Both the position numbers and the translations under genes were made by a program. DNA of 64,000 bases from Candidatus Poseidoniales archaeon (GTDB taxonomy: Archaea; Thermoplasmatota; Poseidoniia; Poseidoniales; Poseidoniaceae). Under the pieces are notes generated by a model. It was not told the DNA's origin, did not search any database, and saw only the letters and a program-made list of their open reading frames with translations. Positions 6,067 through 15,503 of the stretch are shown here, one piece after another (within the stretch, counting starts at the first letter, position 1; each line of letters opens with the position of its first letter). Location of the stretch: NCBI GenBank assembly GCA_038110525.1, contig JAYNJV010000001.1:126130-190129 (forward strand). The letters run 5' to 3'.

Positions 6067-7338
6067 TTGAACTCTCATGTCTTGGAGCCAATGATGAGGC
6101 AGGTGTTTTTGAATTGTGGGTCCATCGCTCACATGCAAAATTCATTGGATGAATATATGCCTTCTCCTGAAAGTAATGTTTATTCTGCTGGAAAGGCAAT
6201 TGTTGTAAATTCATCAATTGTTGAAACAATCAAAGATTCCACAGAAGTTGAAGAAGAATTCTCAGGTTCGAATGAGGTGCAATTGATCGACGTTCAAGGG
6301 CGAAGCATTATTCCTGGTCTCATCGATACGCACACCCATTTATTGTGGGCTGGTGACCGAACTCAAGAAATTCGCTATCGTCTTGAAGGCAAAACATACG
6401 CTGAAATCGAACAAATGGGCGGGGGAATTGCCCTCACAACATCGTTGACTCGCTCAGCATCCCGTGAAGAGTTGATTGAATCTGGATATGTTCGTTTAAG
6501 AACAGCATTGTCACATGGTACAACTCACATCGAAGCTAAAAGTGGATATGGATTAAATGCTGAAACTGAATTAAAACTTTTAGATTGTGGAAATGTATTG
6601 TCAAAATCAAAACATTTACCTTCTATTGAGCAAACATGGTTGGGTGCTCACTCCTTTCCAAATGAATCCACAAAGGAAGAGTACATGGACGACTTATTGA
6701 GCAATCAACTGCCAAAAATCGTCGACCAAGGATTTGCAAAATCTGCTGATGTGTTTTGTGAACCTGGGTGGTTTTCAGTTGAACAATCAGAAGATATTTT
6801 GAGGCAATCTCGCAAATTAGGCCTTGAATTGAGAATGCATATTGATGAATTTGAAGATGGTGGAGGTGCCGATTTAGCTTCTGAACTTCATGTTAATACT
6901 GCAGACCATGCCTACTTTACTCCACATGAGTCGAGATTACGAATGAAAGATTCAGGTGTTAATACGGGTTGTTTACCGGGGGCCCCTTTTGTTCTCGGCC
7001 AACAAATGCATGATTATTCAAGGCTCATAAAAGAAGAAATCCCATTCACACTAGCAACTGACTTCAATCCCAACTGCCAGTTTTTATCTTTGCCACTCAT
7101 TGGTTCATTTGCAGTTCAACGTTCTGGTTTACATCCTTTGAAGGCTCTGAAATGTATGACCTCTCAGGCTGCACAGATATCAAACTTAGACTCTCAACAT
7201 TCACAGGGTACAATTCAAGAAGGTCGCATTGCGACATTCAATATTCTCAACTCTCCACATTGGGAAAGTTGGTGTCAAACTCCTGGCCATTCACCGATTC
7301 ATTCAACACAACTTGAAGGAAAGTACATTGTCCATTGA
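6067..7338 (+). CDS. hutI: Imidazolonepropionase
   Basis: PGLIDTHTH metal motif, EAKSGYGL, WLGAH, DVFCE, HIDE, TADH, ATDFNP. Confidence 0.95.
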   Translation: MNSHVLEPMMRQVFLNCGSIAHMQNSLDEYMPSPESNVYSAGKAIVVNSSIVETIKDSTEVEEEFSGSNEVQLIDVQGRSIIPGLIDTHTHLLWAGDRTQEIRYRLEGKTYAEIEQMGGGIALTTSLTRSASREELIESGYVRLRTALSHGTTHIEAKSGYGLNAETELKLLDCGNVLSKSKHLPSIEQTWLGAHSFPNESTKEEYMDDLLSNQLPKIVDQGFAKSADVFCEPGWFSVEQSEDILRQSRKLGLELRMHIDEFEDGGGADLASELHVNTADHAYFTPHESRLRMKDSGVNTGCLPGAPFVLGQQMHDYSRLIKEEIPFTLATDFNPNCQFLSLPLIGSFAVQRSGLHPLKALKCMTSQAAQISNLDSQHSQGTIQEGRIATFNILNSPHWESWCQTPGHSPIHSTQLEGKYIVH

Positions 7339-7389
7339 TTAAGTAGTAATTGACTTTTGAACCAAATTAAATATAAATTCAGTGATAAT

Positions 7390-7725
7390 ATGTATTGGGT
7401 AGAAACTGTAGTTTGTTCTGGACAAGTTGGTAAAGATGCAAGACTCATGCGAATGCTTGAACTTCGTCAAGAATTCAAGCGTCGCCAAGAAGGTTGTATT
7501 ACTGCTTGGATTGCTCGGAATCCAGATCAGAAGGAATTGTTCCTTGTACATTCAGTATTTGTTTCTCAAGAAGCGTGGAGAGAGATTTCACAAAAAGCCT
7601 TGGATCAACTTGATGCAAAGGACGGGGGAATTGAGTCATTATTAGCTGGGCCACCACTTGTTGGGGTGTTTGAGGCTAAACCAGAACATTTCGTCAATAA
7701 TACCAATGATGGTAACGTCGCATAA
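7390..7725 (+). CDS. Hypothetical protein, possibly ABM/dimeric alpha-beta barrel fold
   Basis: ATG at 7390 after GTGA; beta-alpha-beta pattern (GCITAWIARN...LFLVHSVFVSQEAW) resembling ABM-family proteins; fold call tentative. Confidence 0.65.
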   Translation: MYWVETVVCSGQVGKDARLMRMLELRQEFKRRQEGCITAWIARNPDQKELFLVHSVFVSQEAWREISQKALDQLDAKDGGIESLLAGPPLVGVFEAKPEHFVNNTNDGNVA

Positions 7726-7949
7726 TGTATGTTATGCGACAATGTTTGGGTATCAACATTGAACAATAAGTTCGAAAATAACTCAATTGGTTCGACGTCC
7801 ACGTATTTTTGCAAACTGTCTAACAGTATATTCTGAAAAAATCATATTTTTTTGCCTTGAGGGTAGCCTAAGGGGTTGGAAATTGGCAAAAACTGATAAT
7901 TATTCCGAAGTCTTGAAAAAACATGAATCGAAGGCCAACATGATAAGCG

Positions 7950-8102
7950 ATGAGTGGAGTGGAAGGATTCTGCCTTAAGTGCAAAACCTACGGGCCAATT
8001 CGAGATGGGCAACTCGTACAAATGAATAATGGCCGTACAAGGATGGCGGGATTTTGTTCTCAAAGCGGCTGCAATGGAAAGATTTCCAAAATCGTGAAAT
8101 AA
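7950..8102 (+). CDS. 50-aa Cys4 zinc-finger microprotein, DUF5679-like
   Basis: Hand translation: MSGVEGFCLKCKTYGPIRDGQLVQMNNGRTRMAGFCSQSGCNGKISKIVK*; CxxC, MxNGR, G-x-C pattern matches the DUF5679 consensus as I recall it; below the 60-aa cutoff of the ORF track. Confidence 0.8.
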   Translation: MSGVEGFCLKCKTYGPIRDGQLVQMNNGRTRMAGFCSQSGCNGKISKIVK

Positions 8103-8127
8103 TTTTTACGAAATTTTACCGAATCGG

Positions 8128-8135
8128 TTTAATAC
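8128..8135 (+). promoter_or_regulatory. Probable archaeal TATA box for the tRNA-Val gene
   Basis: TTTAATAC ending about 27 nt upstream of the mature tRNA 5' end. Confidence 0.5.
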
Positions 8136-8161
8136 ACTCTGTTGGTGGCTTTACTTGCGTC

Positions 8162-8237
8162 GGGCTCGTGGTCTAGGGGTTATGACGTCGCCTTGACATG
8201 GCGAAGATCGAGAGTTCAATTCTCTCCGAGCCCACCA
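8162..8237 (+). tRNA. tRNA-Val(GAC), intronless, CCA encoded
   Basis: GGGCTCG/CGAGCCC acceptor stem, D-arm GTGGTCTAGGGGTTATGAC, anticodon arm TCGCC-TTGACAT-GGCGA, T-arm GAGAG-TTCAATT-CTCTC, discriminator A plus CCA. Confidence 0.97.
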
Positions 8238-8274
8238 ATGAATATGGAGTATTCATTTTCTGAAAGGTATTTAT

Positions 8275-8655
8275 TTAATTTTCAGAAATGATTTCATCTT
8301 CGGGTAGTGTTATGTTTTCATGTTTCAATTGAAGTGGAACATCTTCGTCCTCGAAGCTGAAATCTGAATTGCCCCCTTCCCAGTCAACCACATCTTCCGA
8401 CTCCACGAATTTTTCATTTGGCATCGATTGATCAGGTCGGATAGAATAATTCGCCGGGTCGATAATTGGAGTCGAATACTGCTCTATCTCTTCAGGCGTT
8501 GGTGCTTTTCTTTCTTCGAGGATTTTACCAGAATGGAACGTTCCACATTCAGGACATCTTGAGGTCCCAGAAAATTCTAAGCAACCACAAACTGGACATT
8601 GCACTACATTTTTGAATGAGGAAATGCGGTCGGATTCTTCATTCAATGTGATCAC
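8275..8655 (-). CDS. Zinc-ribbon protein with acidic C-terminal tail
   Basis: CPVCG...CPECG double-CxxC motif; GTG start overlaps the TGA stop of the upstream EF-hand gene (GTGA). Confidence 0.85.
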   Translation of the reverse strand: MITLNEESDRISSFKNVVQCPVCGCLEFSGTSRCPECGTFHSGKILEERKAPTPEEIEQYSTPIIDPANYSIRPDQSMPNEKFVESEDVVDWEGGNSDFSFEDEDVPLQLKHENITLPEDEIISEN

Positions 8656-10862
8656 TCTTCAGGGAAGAATGCATCTTCAGTGTATCCAGTTATCTCGTCA
8701 CCGGTTTCATCTTCTTCGATGGTGACCATGCCTTCAGCATCATCAAATTCAACAATCGTTCCGTATACTTCCTCTACTTCTTCTCCGTCTTCGTCATACA
8801 GTACGAGTCCAATATAATCTCCAATTTGGAAATCATCTTCGTGTATTTCACCCTCTTGTTCGCCATCATCATGTTCTTCGTAATCTGAACGGATTCCCAT
8901 GTCAAGTGCAAGAATGGCATCAATGAACTCCTCAGCATCGATTTTACCACTTCCATCTTCATCGAGAGTTTCAAGGATGGCTTGAACATGTTGTGGAGAC
9001 AAGGAGTCACCTGCGATTGACTCAAGCCCTTTCTGGAATTCTGGCCCATCAATTTCCTGATTGTGATCAGCATCCATAGCCTCAAAAACTTCCCGAATGG
9101 TTAGGTTTTGCTCGACCATGAGTTCTCCTAATTTCACAAAGGCATCATCAAAATCACGTGCATCTGCATGATCATCTTGTACTTCTTTCATTGCTCTCAT
9201 GCGTGCTCGCCAGGAAGGTGCCAATACAAAGTGCAATGTGATTGAAGAAATGAGTCCTGCAACCGACAAAATGAGTCCTAAAATGCCGTCCCAGTAAAAT
9301 CCTTTAGGCATAGAACTTGCTTCACCAGCAAGTGGAGTCAATGAATTTGCACAACCCCCAATTTGAATATCCTTGTCGCACGGATATATCGTACCGTCCA
9401 ATCTCGATTCAGTAGGCGAAATAGGGTAAACTCCAGCTTCTGTTTCTTGGGCAACAAGTCCACCTGATCCGTCGACTGGACCGACGAGTGCATTGACTAA
9501 CAATAGGACGATGAGAAGTCCAAACATGGTATGTATAATTGGGTACATAATGTCATTCCAACTCTTTGACATGAATCTTCTTTGCCATACTGTTGGAAAT
9601 TCCTTTTCTTTCTTCGCCTTGAGTTCTTCGGCTTCAATTTGTTCATCGAATTCTTCTATGGACTGAATGAATTCATGAAGGTCAATTTTACCATCTCCAT
9701 CTTGGTCCAAATCAGCCATGAGGTCGGTAATGTCATCTTCTGACAAAACTCCGTCAAGTTCATTTTGAATAGCACTCATTAGTTCTTCATGACTGAGTTG
9801 GCCATCGCCATTCTTGTCAAGATTGTTGAAAAATCGACTTACGGAAACACCTTCATCGTCCATCACAGCAATTAATTTTTCAAATGCAGCTTTTTTGTGA
9901 ATTCCTGGAACAAAATCGACTTCGTCAGATTCTTCATCTTCCTCAATGTCAGCATCCTCATCCTCGTCTTCAGATTCATCATCTCCATCAGCATGAATTT
10001 CTTCTTCATCATCAAATTCTTCTTCCTCGTCGATCCGATCGTCATCATCGTCGGAATCATCCGTGGATTCCATTTCTCCGTCCTCTTCGATTTCAGGTTC
10101 TTCTTCAAAATCTGACTCTTCCTCGACATCCTCATCTTCAACAGATTCTTCATCTTCAAGTTCTTCTTGAATATCACTTTCTTCATCTATCGAAGCATCA
10201 TGGTCTTCCTTCACATCATCTTCGACGACTGGACTCTCATTTTGAACATACAGCGCAGCGGCTTTCTTGAGTTCAGATTCTTTCAAATAACGATTTTGAT
10301 CTTCATCCATTTTGGATGCAAATGCAAGAAAATCATCCTTCTTTTCTATGTTGAATGATGACATGACTCTGTCAAGAACAGATTCAGCATACCCCAATTC
10401 TTGAGCTTGTTCTCCTGCAATGATAACTTCCAATTCCCCTAAATCTATCTCTCCGTCACCATTTTCATCGATGACTTCGACCAATCTTTGAATTTGACTT
10501 GGAGGCAAATCAGCAAGATTTAGATCGAGAAGCCCGTTTCTCAATTCATCGGAATCGATTATTCCATTTCCATCAGCATCAAATCGTTCAAACAATTGTA
10601 AAACGGAGATGCCAGTTTTTGATAACCATGAACGCAAAACATCAACGACATCATCTGCAACGAATACTACACCACATTCAGGGCATTTCGTAGAATCGAT
10701 AGGTACGAGTTTATTACATGCACCACATTCACCCAAGGCTTCATCGGATACCCCAGAAAACGACACACCACATGCTGGACATTGTGAAGAATCTATAGGG
10801 ATGAGTTCTCGGCAAGCACCACATTCGGCCATTGAGCCATTGCGAATATCTTCATCTGTCAT
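8652..10862 (-). CDS. Multi-EF-hand membrane protein: two N-terminal zinc ribbons, 7 EF-hand loops, acidic tract, 2 TM helices
   Basis: Start taken at ATG 10862 (AGGTG upstream). Loops DADGNGIIDSDE, DENGDGEIDLGE, DEDQNRYLKESE, DKNGDGQLSHEE, DQDGDGKIDLHE, DADHNQEIDGPE, DEDGSGKIDAEE; hydrophobic segments IMYPIIHTMFGLLIVLLLVNALV and GILGLILSVAGLISSITLHFVL. Confidence 0.9.
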   Translation of the reverse strand: MTDEDIRNGSMAECGACRELIPIDSSQCPACGVSFSGVSDEALGECGACNKLVPIDSTKCPECGVVFVADDVVDVLRSWLSKTGISVLQLFERFDADGNGIIDSDELRNGLLDLNLADLPPSQIQRLVEVIDENGDGEIDLGELEVIIAGEQAQELGYAESVLDRVMSSFNIEKKDDFLAFASKMDEDQNRYLKESELKKAAALYVQNESPVVEDDVKEDHDASIDEESDIQEELEDEESVEDEDVEEESDFEEEPEIEEDGEMESTDDSDDDDDRIDEEEEFDDEEEIHADGDDESEDEDEDADIEEDEESDEVDFVPGIHKKAAFEKLIAVMDDEGVSVSRFFNNLDKNGDGQLSHEELMSAIQNELDGVLSEDDITDLMADLDQDGDGKIDLHEFIQSIEEFDEQIEAEELKAKKEKEFPTVWQRRFMSKSWNDIMYPIIHTMFGLLIVLLLVNALVGPVDGSGGLVAQETEAGVYPISPTESRLDGTIYPCDKDIQIGGCANSLTPLAGEASSMPKGFYWDGILGLILSVAGLISSITLHFVLAPSWRARMRAMKEVQDDHADARDFDDAFVKLGELMVEQNLTIREVFEAMDADHNQEIDGPEFQKGLESIAGDSLSPQHVQAILETLDEDGSGKIDAEEFIDAILALDMGIRSDYEEHDDGEQEGEIHEDDFQIGDYIGLVLYDEDGEEVEEVYGTIVEFDDAEGMVTIEEDETGDEITGYTEDAFFPEE
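9920..10235 (-). repeat. Asp/Glu low-complexity tract (about 100 codons) inside the EF-hand protein
   Basis: Protein stretch EDDVKEDHDA...EEDEESDEVD; DNA on the + strand is dominated by TCT/TCA/TTC/ATC triplets. Boundaries approximate. Confidence 0.85.
10660..10832 (-). repeat. Tandem duplicated zinc-ribbon unit
   Basis: AECGACRELIPIDSSQCPACGVSF followed by GECGACNKLVPIDSTKCPECGVVF. Boundaries approximate. Confidence 0.85.
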
Positions 10863-10960
10863 ATGCACACCTATGACTCCTACGAAGAAGAATATTATAT
10901 ACATTCATCGCATTGAGGATTGAATTTAACCTAAATTTGATAGATTGTCGCAAAGGGTGG

Positions 10961-11812
10961 ATGAATATGGATGACATTTCCAAACCAGTATTGAGTTTGG
11001 AATTTTCCAACTATGCATCCGCCTTTGAAGAATTAGAAGAACGATTCTCAACTTCCAAATTCACCCTCCTCATTTCAAGATTAGACCACAGAACTTTGGC
11101 CACATACATCGGATTTGACAGAATGAAAGTCTTTTGGTTGACAAAAAGATTGGGCCAGTTAACAATCTTACCTGACATTTCAGATCTTGAAAATTGTATT
11201 CTCGACCATTTGACAGATTCTGAACTTATTGTTTTCGAGGGGGTCGATTGGCTGTTTGAAATTTATGAGGAACAAGATGTGTATCAATTCATTGCACGAT
11301 TGCAGGATGTCTTACAATCCCATCATCAGTGCATTATCTTGTATCAGCCCCTCACATTATCTCCAATTCAATATGCCAGAATCCGACGATTAGCGCCAAG
11401 TGCGACCACCAAAATTTTGAGCCCTGAAGTTACCCCTACAAGAAAATCAACCATCGAACATTCAGTGCCGTTGAATACTGATGAGAGTGAAACAAACTTG
11501 AGAATGCTTACGACATTACCTAAGTTGGGATTTAGTAAAGACCACGTTGCAAAAAGAATTCTTCAATGGAAACGCATGGGTTTTGATGTATCATCATTGC
11601 AACCTGCATTGTCGATGAGAAACATTGACGATGCCTATCAACTCTATCTTCATACCGAAGAAAAGATTCGCCGGGCCATTGAATTACTGAGAGAAGTAGA
11701 TTCACGGTCGAATGATTTATCCGCTAAAATTCTTCAACGCTCAAGATATAATTTGTATCAACTTGAAAACTTTGAAGATGTCGAAAAGTGGCTCATTCAG
11801 CCCACGTACTAA
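10961..11812 (+). CDS. DUF835-like (inactivated RecA/KaiC-fold) protein with helical C-terminal domain
   Basis: LLISR...KVFWLT...LIVFEGVDWL...FIARLQD pattern typical of DUF835; C-terminal WKRMGFDVSSL motif; start at ATG 10961 or 10967 after GGGTGG. Confidence 0.75.
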   Translation: MNMDDISKPVLSLEFSNYASAFEELEERFSTSKFTLLISRLDHRTLATYIGFDRMKVFWLTKRLGQLTILPDISDLENCILDHLTDSELIVFEGVDWLFEIYEEQDVYQFIARLQDVLQSHHQCIILYQPLTLSPIQYARIRRLAPSATTKILSPEVTPTRKSTIEHSVPLNTDESETNLRMLTTLPKLGFSKDHVAKRILQWKRMGFDVSSLQPALSMRNIDDAYQLYLHTEEKIRRAIELLREVDSRSNDLSAKILQRSRYNLYQLENFEDVEKWLIQPTY

Positions 11813-11838: not shown

Positions 11839-13383
11839 TTAAATTAATCCGTGCATTGAGGTAATGGTCGATAACCATGTTCCTTCTTTAATGAATGATG
11901 CAATTGTGATGATGGATTCAGATGTCGACTCGTCACCATTTCGAACCGAATATATCATTCGCGTACACTTTCGAAGTTCTTCAATGATTGGACTCGATTG
12001 TTCGTGATGAAAATCCAAAGCATCGATTGCAATAACGAGTTCACAAGCCAGAATCTCAGAAATTCTATCAATGGCGACTTTCAAGTTAAATGACGAGGTT
12101 GCACCCATTGAAACATGGTCCTCTTGTCCAGCAGAAGTAGAAGTTGAGAATGCTGTACGAGGCAAAGTTTGTCCATGAATTTCTGCAAGTGCGGCCCCTG
12201 CTACATACTGGACAATCATCAAGCCAGATTCTAACCCCGCATCCTTTGCTAAAAATGGCTGTGGTGCTCTTTTGTTAACATCGAGTAATTGATCCATTCT
12301 GCGTTCACTTATACTTCCAAGTTCAAAGAGAGCAAGCACCATTGCATCGGCAACAAGACCGATAATTTCACCGTGGAAATTTCCTTGAGAAACTATTTCG
12401 TGAGGTCCAGGATTTCTTGTGTCGGGAAAGACCAGAGGGTTATCGGTTGAACTGTTGAGTTCAATTGTGAGGGTATCAATCAGTTTTTGATATGATTCAT
12501 GAACTGCACCATGAACTTGTGGAGCACAACGAAAAGAATAGGCATCTTGGACTCTATCACAGTTTTTGTGCGAGTTTAAAATTTGAGAATGTTCTATAAT
12601 TTTTCTCATCCGTTTTGCTACTAATTTTTGTCCAGGATGTGGACGTATGTTGTGGACTTGTTCAATAAGGGGCGTTGCACTTCCTTTCGCTGCATCCAAG
12701 GATGCACAATAGATAATATCTGCAAGTGGAAGAATTTGAGATAATTCGTAGGCTGATAATGCGAGGTATGCAGTCATTTGGCTTGTTCCGTTAATGAGCG
12801 ATAATCCATCTTTTGCCCTCAATTCTACTGGTACAAGCCCATTTTCTTGAAGAATTTCTTTGGTCTTCATTTTCACTCCGTCTTTAATGACATGTCCTTC
12901 TCCAATCAAAGAAAGTGCCAAATGTGACAATGGTGCTAAATCACCACTTGCTCCAAGTGACCCGATTCTTGGAATATATGGAATGATATTGAGGTTAAGA
13001 AATGCTACCAACTGATACATAACATCCGGGTGAGCCCCCGAATAGCCTTTGCATAATGAGTTGAGGCGAATTAACATCATGGCACGTACTTCAGGTTCTT
13101 GCATAGGCTCTCCAATAGCCGTTGCATGGGAGCGAATAAGATTGAGCTGAAGTTGTTTTACTTGGTCATTGTCAATTCTGGTGTTGACCAAAGAACCAAA
13201 GCCTGTATTCACGCCGTACACAGTTTCATTTCCTCTGAGAATTCGTTCGATGACTCCTCTGGAGGCGAGAATTTTGGACCAAGCATCTGAAGCGACTTCT
13301 ACTTTCACATGGTGGTGGGCTACCATAAAGACATCAGTTAGGGATAATGTTTCCCCGTCAACATACACCACAGTATCAGTCAT
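11839..13383 (-). CDS. hutH: Histidine ammonia-lyase
   Basis: VYGVNTGFG, NLIRSHA, SLGASGDLAPL (MIO-forming ASG), KDGLSLING, VQDAYSFRC, DNPLVF, GNFHG, QEDHVSMG. Confidence 0.97.
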   Translation of the reverse strand: MTDTVVYVDGETLSLTDVFMVAHHHVKVEVASDAWSKILASRGVIERILRGNETVYGVNTGFGSLVNTRIDNDQVKQLQLNLIRSHATAIGEPMQEPEVRAMMLIRLNSLCKGYSGAHPDVMYQLVAFLNLNIIPYIPRIGSLGASGDLAPLSHLALSLIGEGHVIKDGVKMKTKEILQENGLVPVELRAKDGLSLINGTSQMTAYLALSAYELSQILPLADIIYCASLDAAKGSATPLIEQVHNIRPHPGQKLVAKRMRKIIEHSQILNSHKNCDRVQDAYSFRCAPQVHGAVHESYQKLIDTLTIELNSSTDNPLVFPDTRNPGPHEIVSQGNFHGEIIGLVADAMVLALFELGSISERRMDQLLDVNKRAPQPFLAKDAGLESGLMIVQYVAGAALAEIHGQTLPRTAFSTSTSAGQEDHVSMGATSSFNLKVAIDRISEILACELVIAIDALDFHHEQSSPIIEELRKCTRMIYSVRNGDESTSESIITIASFIKEGTWLSTITSMHGLI

Positions 13384-15410
13384 CGTATTTCCTCCACAAT
13401 GTTCTCGATAAGGTCATCATCAGCAATATTTGGGATTGTCACCTGCAAACCCTCGATGTTTTCGCACGCCCTATGGATAGCATTGATTGCACCTTGATTT
13501 CGTGCCCAAGACCTTCGGGCAATTCCATTATTGACATCCCACATTAGCATTGATTGAAGTTTTCTTTCAGCCTCATCTGAACCATCAAGAACCAAGCCGA
13601 ATCCTCCATTGATGACTTCACCCCAGCCGACCCCTCCACCGTTGTGAATACTAATCCATGTAGCACCACGACAAGCATCTCCTAGGACATTTTGAATCGC
13701 CATATCCGCTGTAAACATCGACCCGTCTCGAATATTTGCGGTTTCACGATATGGGCTATCAGTACCAGATACATCATGATGGTCTCTTCCTAAAACAATT
13801 GGTGCGGAAATGATTCCATCTGCGATTGCCTTGTTGAGTGCTGAGGCAATCATTCGTCGTCCTTGATCGTCAGCATACAAGATCCTCGCTTGACTTCCGA
13901 CGACCATTTGATTCTCCCCCGCATTTTCAATCCATCGAATATTATCAGCAATTTGTTGATGAATTTCTTGAGGTGCTGTTTTTAACATATTGAGGAGTAC
14001 ATCTCTTGCGATGCTGTCTGAGCATTTCAAATCGCTTGATAGCCCACTGGTGCAAACCCAACGAAACGGACCAAAACCATAGTCGAAACACATCGGACCC
14101 ATGATATCTTCAACATATGAAGGATAGCGAAACGTACCATCCTCCAAAACCACATCCGCCCCAACTCTTGAAGCTTCAAGAAGAAATGCATTGCCATAAT
14201 CCCAGAAATACATGCCTTTTTCTGATAATGCATTAATTGAACGAACATGTCTTTGAAGTGTATCTTGAACTTCAGATTTGAATTGAACTGGATTCTTTGC
14301 CATCATCTCCGTTGACTCTTCGTAGGAATATCCAGCAGGAAAATAACCGCCTTGGTATGGATTATGCAAACTCGTTTGGTCGCTACCCAAATGTGGAACT
14401 ACGTTTCGCTCAAGACATCTTTCCCACAATTCTACGATGTTTCCTACATAACCAATTGATATTGGTTTATTGTTCTGAGCATTCTCCACCATTATTGAAA
14501 TGGCTTCATCAACATCTTTGGTGACAAGATGAAGCCAGCCTTGCTCATGACGCTTTTGTGCAGCATGTTCATTCATTTCTGCAATAATTGAAGACGCACC
14601 AGCAATCGTTGCGGCTTTTGCTTGGGCCCCCGACATTCCACCGAGTCCGGAAGAAATGAACATCATACCACGCAAGTCTTTATCACTTTCAAGTCCAAAT
14701 TTCATTCGTGCTGCATTAAGAATTGTTATTGTCGTTCCATGAACAATTCCCTGTGGACCAATGTACATGTACGAGCCAGCAGTCATTTGGCCATATTGTG
14801 TTACGCCCATCGCATTCATTCGTTCGTAATCGTCTTGTGATGAGTAATTTGGAATCACCATGCCGTTGGTGACGATGACACGAGGGGCATCAGAACTTGA
14901 AGGAAAAAGTCCTAATGGGTGCCCAGAGTACATTACTAAAGTTTGATTATCGGTCATCTCACTTAGGTACTTCATCACAAGGCGATACTGTGCCCAATTT
15001 TGGAACACTGACCCATTTCCCCCATAGGTGATGAGCTCATGTGGGAATTGTGCCACCTTTGGGTCAAGATTGTTTTGAATCATGAGCATAATAGATGCTG
15101 CATGTTTCGAATTGGTTCGATATTGGCTGATTGGTCGTGCATGCATTTCGTATTCAATCGGACGAAATCTATGCATGTAAATACGACCGTGCACATCTAA
15201 TTCTTGAAGAAATTCTTTTCCCAAGAGTTCATGGTGTTGTTTTTCAAAATAACGCAGTGCGTTTTTGATGGCAAGACGCTTTTCCTTGACGGTCAAGATT
15301 TGCCTCCTTGAGGGGGCATGGTCGACATCTTGTGAAAGTCCAGGATGATTTGGCAACTCCGATGGGATGCCTTCGGAGAGATGAGCATTAAATTGAGCAA
15401 CATCCTCCAT
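13380..15410 (-). CDS. hutU: Urocanate hydratase, long (eukaryote/Bacteroidetes-like) form
   Basis: GRIYMHRFRP, IMLMIQNNLDPKVAQFPHELITYGGNG, YGQMTAGSYMYIGPQGIVHGT, SGLGGMSGAQ, SDQTSLHN, WDYGNAF, GRDHHDVSG, HNGGGVG; ATG 15410 chosen as start; stop overlaps the hutH start. Confidence 0.97.
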   Translation of the reverse strand: MEDVAQFNAHLSEGIPSELPNHPGLSQDVDHAPSRRQILTVKEKRLAIKNALRYFEKQHHELLGKEFLQELDVHGRIYMHRFRPIEYEMHARPISQYRTNSKHAASIMLMIQNNLDPKVAQFPHELITYGGNGSVFQNWAQYRLVMKYLSEMTDNQTLVMYSGHPLGLFPSSSDAPRVIVTNGMVIPNYSSQDDYERMNAMGVTQYGQMTAGSYMYIGPQGIVHGTTITILNAARMKFGLESDKDLRGMMFISSGLGGMSGAQAKAATIAGASSIIAEMNEHAAQKRHEQGWLHLVTKDVDEAISIMVENAQNNKPISIGYVGNIVELWERCLERNVVPHLGSDQTSLHNPYQGGYFPAGYSYEESTEMMAKNPVQFKSEVQDTLQRHVRSINALSEKGMYFWDYGNAFLLEASRVGADVVLEDGTFRYPSYVEDIMGPMCFDYGFGPFRWVCTSGLSSDLKCSDSIARDVLLNMLKTAPQEIHQQIADNIRWIENAGENQMVVGSQARILYADDQGRRMIASALNKAIADGIISAPIVLGRDHHDVSGTDSPYRETANIRDGSMFTADMAIQNVLGDACRGATWISIHNGGGVGWGEVINGGFGLVLDGSDEAERKLQSMLMWDVNNGIARRSWARNQGAINAIHRACENIEGLQVTIPNIADDDLIENIVEEIR

Positions 15411-15503
15411 GAGACGACTTACTGTGGTCAATTTTTCATTGTTGTTATTCCAATTTTTGCAACCAACGGTCAACCTCAAGATGTATCAAGTACTGGAAGG
15501 AGC

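Follow-up and report, generated by a model that had tools for sequence, protein, structure and literature searches.

A Poseidoniales-specific protein combining predicted EF-hands, a double zinc ribbon and a membrane hairpin without known relatives: a candidate membrane-tethered cytoplasmic Ca2+ sensor

Ca2+ is a textbook intracellular signal in eukaryotes and is just now being documented as one in bacteria, with EfhP as an example, whilst Ca2+ signalling in archaea is, to our knowledge, almost unexplored. The sensors calmodulin, troponin C and centrin are small, soluble proteins with four EF-hands and a central helix, the EF-hands being paired helix-loop-helix units with canonical 12-residue loops. 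In STIM1, an EF-hand sensor on the lumenal or extracytoplasmic side is linked via a single membrane helix to an output across the membrane, and a SAM domain is also present. The bacterial protein EfhP (PA4107) from Pseudomonas aeruginosa is an envelope protein with two EF-hands, predicted to be periplasmic and to carry a signal peptide, which binds Ca2+ with a Kd of 13.7 µM and undergoes a conformational change (PMC9132961). Here we analyse a gene from a stretch of 64,000 nucleotides (the window) belonging to a Candidatus Poseidoniales archaeon (assembly GCA_038110525.1, contig JAYNJV010000001.1, positions 126,130 to 190,129): its product, P0001, combines seven predicted EF-hands with zinc ribbons and a membrane hairpin of two transmembrane (TM) helices. 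Poseidoniales (Marine Group II) rank among the most abundant surface-ocean archaea and have not been cultured, and genes specific to the lineage are the main clues to the biology of this group. We read P0001 as a membrane-tethered cytoplasmic Ca2+ sensor or transducer specific to Poseidoniales, to which we assign a probability of about 0.6; that its predicted EF-hands bind Ca2+ is highly probable.

A preliminary description of the window had proposed an order of domains that holds for the 736-residue protein: a double zinc ribbon is followed by EF1-2, a pseudo-EF-hand with EF3, a tract rich in Asp and Glu (D/E), EF4-5, TM1, an outer loop, TM2, EF6-7 and a Tudor/SH3-like barrel (Table 1). With calmodulin, troponin C and centrin, which are the top Foldseek matches of its structural model, P0001 shares the paired helix-loop-helix units, the canonical 12-residue loops and, in the mechanism proposed below, the principle of a Ca2+-driven change of shape in EF pairs. 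However, its seven sites are spread over 736 residues, the EF lobes being set apart by acidic spacers of 60-110 residues and by the hairpin, and they are accompanied by the ribbons and the barrel: P0001 thus falls outside the calmodulin family proper (soluble proteins of ~150 residues with two lobes and a central helix), and the likeness does not go beyond shared membership of the EF-hand superfamily. As with EfhP, we are dealing with a prokaryotic EF-hand protein at the cell envelope, but the bacterial protein exhibits neither zinc ribbon nor hairpin nor acidic tract. The linkage of an EF-hand sensor to an output via a membrane helix recalls STIM1, although the EF-hands of P0001 are predicted to be cytoplasmic and no SAM domain is present; the Pfam family EF-hand_STIM1 was matched in one of 31 homologues. 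EF-hand Ca2+-binding proteins as such are known, and what is new is the architecture together with a membrane module that belongs to no family; a literature search found no study of the EF-hand hairpin protein.

The assignment of EF-hands is carried by motif, profile, model and conservation. A pattern scan identified 12-residue loops beginning at residues 95, 132, 186, 349, 386, 597 and 634, five of the seven being fully canonical; loop 597 (DADHNQEIDGPE) exhibits Q at position 6 with every ligand position kept, and loop 186 (DEDQNRYLKESE) has R and K at positions 6 and 9, respectively, and retains positions 1, 3, 5 and 12. The profile scan that the preliminary description had proposed gave an EF-hand_7 (PF13499) match with E=2e-28 and 98.8 bits (cut-off 30), with three pairs above the cut-off, alongside EF-hand_1 (PF00036; E=5e-32, 107.5 bits, cut-off 25.4) and further matches to EF-hand_6, EF-hand_5 and EF-hand_8. 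An AlphaFold2 model, built on 121 homologues (mean predicted local distance difference test score, pLDDT, 68.6; predicted template-modelling score, pTM, 0.28), places a helix before and after each of the seven loops with pLDDT mostly 73-89, so that the EF-hand assignment is borne out at the very point, loops lacking their flanking helices, at which it had been considered open to refutation. Across these 121 homologues, which underlie all conservation values given here, the loops of EF1, EF2, EF4 and EF5 never vary at positions 1 and 12, and their positions 3 and 5 are D or N, save for S in three sequences at EF5. Position 8 of EF1 and EF2 is Ile in 120-121 of the 121 sequences, and this pair is modelled with helices 87-94/104-113 and 121-131/141-154. 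For the pseudo-EF and EF3, helices were obtained at 160-169, 175-185 and 195-207; the EF3 loop is retained as [DN]-x-[ND]-x-N-x-Y-L-[TK]-x-x-E in 108 of 121 sequences and is hence non-canonical but ligand-complete, and in the model EF3 is probably partnered by the loop-less helix-loop-helix at 160-185. The EF6-EF7 pair reached 48.4 bits with EF-hand_7 in a scan of the genome. Foldseek with the whole model returned calmodulin, troponin C, centrin and calcyphosine; it was discarded as a guide to the other parts of the protein, its matches being EF-hand proteins and long proteins of cilia, the root-mean-square deviations (rmsd) of which carry no meaning. Similarly, a match to the NCBIfam family XopAW, an EF-hand effector (76.8 bits against a cut-off of 120 bits), was set aside as generic EF-hand similarity.

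Table 1. Features of the EF-hand hairpin gene and its surroundings, in coordinates of the window; residue numbers refer to P0001.
Feature	Position	Strand	Basis and remarks
EF-hand hairpin protein gene (P0001), 736 amino acids	8652..10862	(-)	includes stop codon; open reading frame, start evidence, >1600 homologues
Double zinc ribbon, residues 11-66, four CxxC pairs	10665..10832	(-)	Pfam DZR; 8 Cys invariant; C14-C63 spacing fixed (121 sequences)
EF1-EF2 pair, residues 84-154, loops 95 and 132	10401..10613	(-)	Pfam EF-hand_7/EF-hand_6; conservation; AlphaFold2 helices
Pseudo-EF helix-loop-helix and EF3, residues 157-207, loop 186 DEDQNRYLKESE	10242..10394	(-)	AlphaFold2 helices; loop conservation
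Poly-D/E tract, predicted disordered, residues 210-322	9897..10235	(-)	~66% D/E; pLDDT ~30
EF4-EF5 pair, residues 338-416, loops 349 and 386; exit helix toward TM1	9615..9851	(-)	best EF-hand_7 stretch 343-400; positions 1 and 12 invariant
TM1, residues 433-460	9483..9566	(-)	hydropathy; AlphaFold2 helix 433-459; invariant D437, P441, H444, N457 (per-column conservation)
Outer loop, residues 461-520	9303..9482	(-)	beta strands; C495-X8-C504 invariant; NSLTPLAGE..SSMP motif
TM2, residues 521-549	9216..9302	(-)	hydropathy, AlphaFold2, conservation; invariant F522, Y523, D525, G536; small-residue stripe; Q/H544
EF6-EF7 pair, residues 573-656, mobile 'GPEFQ'-type module	8895..9146	(-)	best Pfam EF-hand_1 stretch 626-650
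C-terminal Tudor/SH3-like beta barrel, residues 676-736	8655..8837	(-)	AlphaFold2 strands; model of homologue fragment
Small zinc-ribbon protein, 126 amino acids	8275..8655	(-)	GTG start overlaps upstream stop (GTGA)
Predicted divergent promoter region, ~100 bp	10863..10960	.	TATATAATA box and Shine-Dalgarno-like motifs for both genes; inference, read off sequence
DUF835 (inactivated KaiC-like) protein, divergent	10961..11812	(+)	Pfam DUF835 33.5 bits vs 33.1 cut-off; likely start 10961

Together, the hairpin and its outer loop exhibit 32 invariant columns out of 155; besides the invariant residues given in Table 1, G465, G468, Y493, Q500, N506, P510, S517, M518 and P519 as well as W551 and R552 are unchanged throughout. 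Within the loop, strands were modelled at 469-494 and the stretch 506-520 with low confidence, whilst the invariant pair C495/C504 retains its spacing throughout; the helix modelled over the TM2 region spans 521-568, and TM2 carries a stripe of small residues, G526-(G/S/A)533-G536-(S/G)540. A comparison of the hairpin profile with PDB sequences returned an archaeal type IV pilin (E=0.25), a taste receptor (E=0.43) and a NavAb chimera (E=5.8), which we rejected as noise arising from hydrophobic helices. As for spacing along the protein, the distance from ribbon to EF1 is fixed at 32 residues, that from EF5 to F422 is 24-26 residues in 114 of 121 sequences and that from F422 to P441 is fixed, with spacing also fixed or nearly so for EF1-EF2, EF4-EF5, within TM1, in the CX8C pair and in TM2; the lengths of the segments between such blocks vary widely. 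From this pattern we conclude that the protein consists of rigid blocks, namely ribbons with EF1-2, the pseudo-EF with EF3, EF4-5 with the hairpin, and the barrel, joined by variable acidic spacers.

The orientation of the hairpin follows from several features that agree with each other. Lys and Arg account for 11 of the 42 residues flanking the hairpin on its proposed inner side and for 3 of the 64 residues of the loop, and neither an N-terminal hydrophobic segment nor a signal peptide was found ahead of the acidic N-terminal part of 430 residues. The 'GPELQ'-type EF pair, represented in P0001 by EF6-7, precedes the hairpin in 93 of 121 homologues and follows it in 18, whilst the other 10 lack the pair: since this module works on either side, both sides of the hairpin would lie in the same compartment, and since all eight zinc-ligand Cys residues are invariant, the compartment holding the ribbons would be a reducing one. 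The positive-inside rule, the missing signal peptide, the Cys ligands and the shuffling of the EF module therefore strongly favour a predicted N-in/C-in topology, with EF-hands and ribbons in the cytoplasm and the short Cys loop, which would be able to form a disulfide, outside; this is the topology that had been presumed beforehand.

The ribbons exhibit four CxxC pairs (C14/17, C28/31, C46/49 and C60/63), all eight Cys residues of which are invariant. The DZR scan proposed in the preliminary description gave E=3e-5, with a score of 24.5 bits that lies just below the gathering cut-off of 27.3 bits. DZR was matched in 31 of 31 homologues at E<=0.01, divergent relatives score 31.6 and 27.3 bits, and the two consecutive CxxC...CxxC ribbons correspond to the layout of DZR (PF12773); short strands were modelled at 11-13, 20-22, 43-45 and 52-54. 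The acidic tract of about 100 residues that had been noted earlier covers some 110 residues at ~66% D/E, with about 70 acidic residues among the 106 from 211 to 316, and D or E make up 211 of the 736 residues of P0001. According to a crude census of ~1467 open reading frames it is the largest D/E-rich tract of the genome, the proteome of which is merely mildly acidic (median pI 5.4). In each of the 121 homologues, windows with a D/E content of 50% or more cover 81-211 residues, yet the tracts do not align: as judged from these sequences, the tract is conserved in composition only. Slippage of the DNA was considered as its origin and rejected, because Tandem Repeats Finder gives a single 18-nt match of 2.1 copies and the tract is hence not a simple tandem repeat.

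Four beta strands were modelled across residues 683-727 of P0001, a region in which G681, G685, G701, E705, F706 and D708 are invariant. In order to search for its fold, we used a fragment reaching from the hairpin to the C-terminus of the homologue P0016, in which there is no EF pair after TM2 and the C-terminal domain is modelled with pLDDT ~90. Foldseek matched this domain to the Tudor domains of SMN and TDRD3, to Agenet (ADCP1) and to KOW domains, with rmsd of 1.6-1.9 Å over 52-54 columns, target-normalised template-modelling scores of 0.7-0.82 and E-values from 3.5e-3; the sequence profile of the barrel gave a weak match to LSm5 (E ~0.4). We take the modelled domain to be an SH3-type (Tudor-like) barrel, so that the small acidic beta domain of the preliminary description is indeed present, its more exact nature having been overlooked.

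A search of 5.8 billion proteins returned more than 1600 matches at E<=0.001; the best 120 of these are 605-778 residues long and exhibit the same set of Pfam domains, and the few relatives that bear a name are entered as 'EF-hand domain-containing protein [Ca. Poseidoniaceae archaeon]' or 'hypothetical'. Amongst 1.84 billion representative proteins, the hairpin profile matched 63 clusters, and every full-length cluster checked combines the hairpin with ribbons and EF-hands, with the exception of P0149 and P0151. These two proteins (609-639 residues) exhibit two tandem hairpins with the same Cys loop and basic N- and C-terminal parts, without EF-hands or ribbons; their loci (L021-L023) lie on metagenome contigs of 3.6-4.3 kb with an adjoining transaldolase gene, a context that is uninformative. 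The survey of orthologues across Poseidoniales, suggested at the outset, found the hairpin module as a single copy in 96 of the 201 genomes sampled from the order, spread over 13 of 24 genera, and confirmed its restriction to the order. In the family to which the window belongs, the profile matched 85 of 100 sampled genomes, the absences being mostly incomplete assemblies; in the second large family the module occurs in part of the genomes, and no hairpin gene was found in the small-genome genera of that family. Amongst ~300 other genomes of the phylum the hairpin was absent, bar one match of 22 bits. As far as these genomes reach, the gene is specific to the order Poseidoniales and single-copy, and the predicted architecture, weighed against chance, is real and strongly conserved. 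Weak matches in three genomes of the small-genome genera (G029, G037 and G039) were rejected as orthologues, since they belong to a different EF-hand protein without ribbon, hairpin or barrel. The apparent absence in another genome (G028) proved to be an artefact: a masked run of N splits the gene, and the profile misses its divergent, shorter loop. At this locus (L020, G028:C1:48000-63000) the orthologue, cut by the N-run, lies at 6183-8068 (-) and exhibits a shorter, divergent outer loop with a CX14C pair; because this loop was scored as absent, profile-based tallies undercount the family.

How such a protein might act can be proposed as follows. Seawater holds ~10 mM Ca2+. Upon a rise of free Ca2+ in the cytoplasm, the EF pairs would bind Ca2+ and change shape as in calmodulin, and given that the exit helix of EF5 heads to TM1 at nearly invariant spacing, this change would reach the hairpin and alter its packing, its oligomeric state or the outer loop. 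Partners held by the zinc ribbons and the barrel may change as well, the likely ones being the small zinc-ribbon protein co-translated with P0001 and the inactivated-KaiC-like protein encoded next to it. Of the two roles put forward in the preliminary description, that of a sensor is moderately favoured over that of a buffer, since selection acts on modules and junctions for which a buffer has no need; the identity of the output, be it the hairpin itself or the partners held by ribbons and barrel, is only weakly indicated. Several points weigh against a sensor. Pfam and NCBIfam scans revealed no output domain of known function in the protein; the whole protein and its partner are acidic, unlike the basic amphipathic targets of calmodulin; the hairpin is without a relative in Pfam, among PDB sequences (profile, best E=0.25) or in the Foldseek fold search; and the confidence of the model is low both for the arrangement of the whole protein (pTM 0.28) and for the loop segment 506-520. 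Furthermore, the entire hut neighbourhood in which the gene stands is syntenic across the order, so that mere adjacency says little about a functional link, and one deletion can cause the joint loss of adjacent genes. The protein couples calmodulin-type sites directly to a membrane module without known relatives and offers a tractable entry point: as a sensor it would define a Ca2+ pathway of archaea, and if the hairpin conducts ions, it represents a new channel family.

The acidic composition could be accounted for by supposing that the protein is a high-capacity, low-affinity buffer of Ca2+ or other divalent ions at the inner face of the membrane, soaking up leak from seawater in the manner of calsequestrin or the C-domain of calreticulin, with which P0001 shares long, D/E-rich stretches of low complexity that could bind Ca2+ weakly. 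The 211 acidic residues, a tract larger than any other in the genome, the presence of such tracts in all homologues and the seven predicted binding loops would all suit this role. However, a buffer would need neither invariant ribbons nor a fixed EF-to-TM junction, a conserved outer loop or a Tudor-like barrel, and it would need high abundance, whereas P0001 is encoded by a single-copy gene in an operon with a zinc-ribbon protein. The tracts themselves are unalignable spacers between folded units, linkers between modules of signalling type; the Pfam and NCBIfam scans found no thioredoxin-like domains of calsequestrin, nor does P0001 exhibit a lectin domain, and acidic composition is all that is shared. 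We hence consider pure buffering unlikely. Scarcely any credence is given to the notion that EF-hands and acidic parts face outward as structural sites of an envelope protein, permanently loaded at the ~10 mM Ca2+ of seawater: a periplasmic location applies to characterised bacterial EF-hand proteins, EfhP among them (PMC9132961), and the Cys pair of the loop could in principle be reduced inside the cell, but a highly acidic N-terminal part of 430 residues would have to be exported without a signal peptide, the positive-inside rule points the opposite way and the eight invariant Cys residues of the ribbons would meet an oxidising medium.

A bolder idea is that of a Ca2+-gated or Ca2+-conducting pore, in which an oligomer of hairpins lines an ion path gated by the EF pairs at TM1 and, in this protein, also at TM2. 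In MthK and MCU-MICU, too, each subunit has two TM helices, and Ca2+-binding domains face the cytoplasm or matrix; in P0001, the outer end of TM2 bears acidic and aromatic residues (FYWD) that are conserved. Few parts of the protein are as well conserved as the hairpin and outer loop, invariant or conserved polar residues lie in or at the ends of both helices (D437, H444 and N457 in TM1; D525 and Q/H544 in TM2), TM2 carries its stripe of small residues, the distance between EF5 and TM1 hardly varies, EF pairs abut both helices in P0001, and the tandem hairpins of P0149 and P0151 suggest that hairpins pair. Against this, there is no TVGYG or DxxE filter or other known selectivity-filter motif, no RCK domain and no likeness in sequence or fold to solved channels, the best PDB profile matches being the pilin and the NavAb chimera already mentioned and Foldseek returning nothing, so that the likeness to MthK and MCU is one of layout only and P0001 shares no recognisable pore motif, sequence or fold with the known 2-TM channels (KcsA/MthK, MCU, MscL). 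Moreover, a dimerising anchor fits the same pattern of conservation, and the hairpin was modelled as a monomer only; a pore is accordingly an unlikely, if attractive, explanation. More doubtful still is a Ca2+-dependent membrane tether for a nucleic-acid-binding, transcription or translation factor, from which Ca2+ would free the partner in an anti-sigma-like fashion. Zinc ribbons and Tudor-, KOW- or Sm-like barrels are common modules for binding proteins or nucleic acids, the Foldseek matches include the Spt5 KOW, NusG and LSm domains in addition to the weak LSm5 match, and the co-translated zinc-ribbon partner bears a conserved linear motif; yet both barrel and partner are strongly acidic, which counts against binding of nucleic acid, the scans found no DNA-binding domain in any protein of the trio formed by P0001 and its two neighbours, and the fold matches are generic SH3-type barrels with E-values of 3.5e-3 or worse. 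We therefore return to the membrane-tethered sensor or transducer as the preferred reading.

The gene had initially been treated alone, and its membership of a conserved trio, of which it is the core, was overlooked, as was the standing of the hairpin as the module that defines the family. In the 126-residue protein encoded downstream, a single zinc ribbon leads into an acidic, disordered tail that bears the conserved motif W-x-G-G-x-[ST]-D-F-x-[FMV]. Its orthologue lies directly downstream in 10 of 10 related loci, the junction being a stop/start overlap or a gap of 4 nt in nine of these (in L020 the upstream gene is cut by the masked stretch), and to judge from such junctions the two genes are translationally coupled and probably co-transcribed. 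The profile of the divergent DUF835 neighbour matches the KaiC-like protein FlaH (4yds; E=7.7e-4) over a strand-rich core, although no GK[ST] motif, and hence no Walker A, is visible in its sequence. In the list of output domains of archaeal response regulators given by Galperin et al. 2018 (PMC5847659), DUF835 appears as an inactivated KaiC; the neighbour differs from these in having no REC domain and in possessing its own conserved C-terminal KRMLQW..GFD domain of no recognised kind, and it is separate from the EF-hand protein. All 10 loci examined, which come from three families, keep the three genes side by side, with hutH/hutU at one end and tRNA-Val/hutI at the other. Among 20 genomes checked in the second family, the DUF835-like orthologue accompanies the hairpin gene in all 7 that have this gene and is missing from all 13 that lack it. 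It is tempting, though decidedly speculative, to see in the trio an archaeal second-messenger device for Ca2+ that is complete in itself and ancestral to Marine Group II, with the hairpin as a new 2-TM pore or outward receptor gated by calmodulin-like lobes on both helices; if this were true, then together with the EF pairs found on a permease and on a NuoL/Mrp-type subunit (see below) it would mean that one of the planktonic archaea of highest abundance runs Ca2+ signalling in the style of eukaryotes.

The surrounding genes comprise an amidohydrolase at the hutI position (6067-7338 (+)), a tRNA-Val (GAC) at 8162-8237 (+), which is convergent with the small zinc-ribbon gene and fills part of a gap without open reading frames (7725-8275), an aromatic amino-acid lyase resembling hutH (11839-13383 (-)) and a urocanase (13380-15479 (-)). 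The order of amidohydrolase, lyase and urocanase around the trio is kept across three families of the order.

The start codon at 10862 that had been assigned earlier stands on closer inspection. It corresponds to Met15 of a 750-codon open reading frame at 8652..10904 (-), is preceded by a Shine-Dalgarno-like AGGTG motif 6 nt upstream and by a TATA box (TATATAATA) ~40 nt upstream, and is equivalent to the N-termini of remoter homologues, which read MSDE.... The longer frame from the first ATG at 10904 was rejected, as this ATG falls within the TATA box and its codons would translate the promoter. Database open reading frames of close relatives (P0002, P0003, P0007, P0010 and P0012) begin with 'MYIIFFF...', that is, with the translated TATA-box region (10863-10904 (-) in the window), and their annotated N-termini are probably 14 residues too long. 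A scan for promoters and terminators of bacterial type gave counts at or below shuffle expectation.

The statement in the preliminary description that EF-hands are uncommon in archaea needs qualification for this lineage, in which they have expanded: the genome encodes six EF-hand proteins, five besides P0001, and three of these five are polytopic membrane proteins. Poseidoniales-specific gene modules have been noted, in one sentence, to contain Ca-binding domains (Méheust et al. 2022, PMC9258230). Outside the window, an amino-acid permease of the APC family ends in an EF pair (G000:C15, ~31.2 kb) and a polytopic protein without Pfam family bears one at its C-terminus (G000:C5, ~17.1 kb); these predicted fusions suggest Ca2+ regulation in the lineage. 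A NuoL/Mrp-type Proton_antipo_M subunit of 846 residues (G000:C13, ~24.7-25.0 kb) carries an EF pair between His-rich stretches (HHAHHHLHHDEHHHH), apparently inserted in a cytoplasmic loop, and may be an antiporter-like subunit regulated by Ca2+ or another metal. Of the remaining two, one is a stand-alone EF pair of 99 residues that shares the 'GPEL' type of EF6-7 (G000:C7:56324-56533), and the other is soluble, combines an EF pair with QQWQQQP repeats and carries a zinc ribbon at its C-terminus (G000:C8, ~41.4 kb). The expected machinery for Ca2+ extrusion is represented by two genes of the CaCA (Na+/Ca2+-exchanger) family (G000:C4:43.4-44.4 kb and C5:57.0-58.0 kb).

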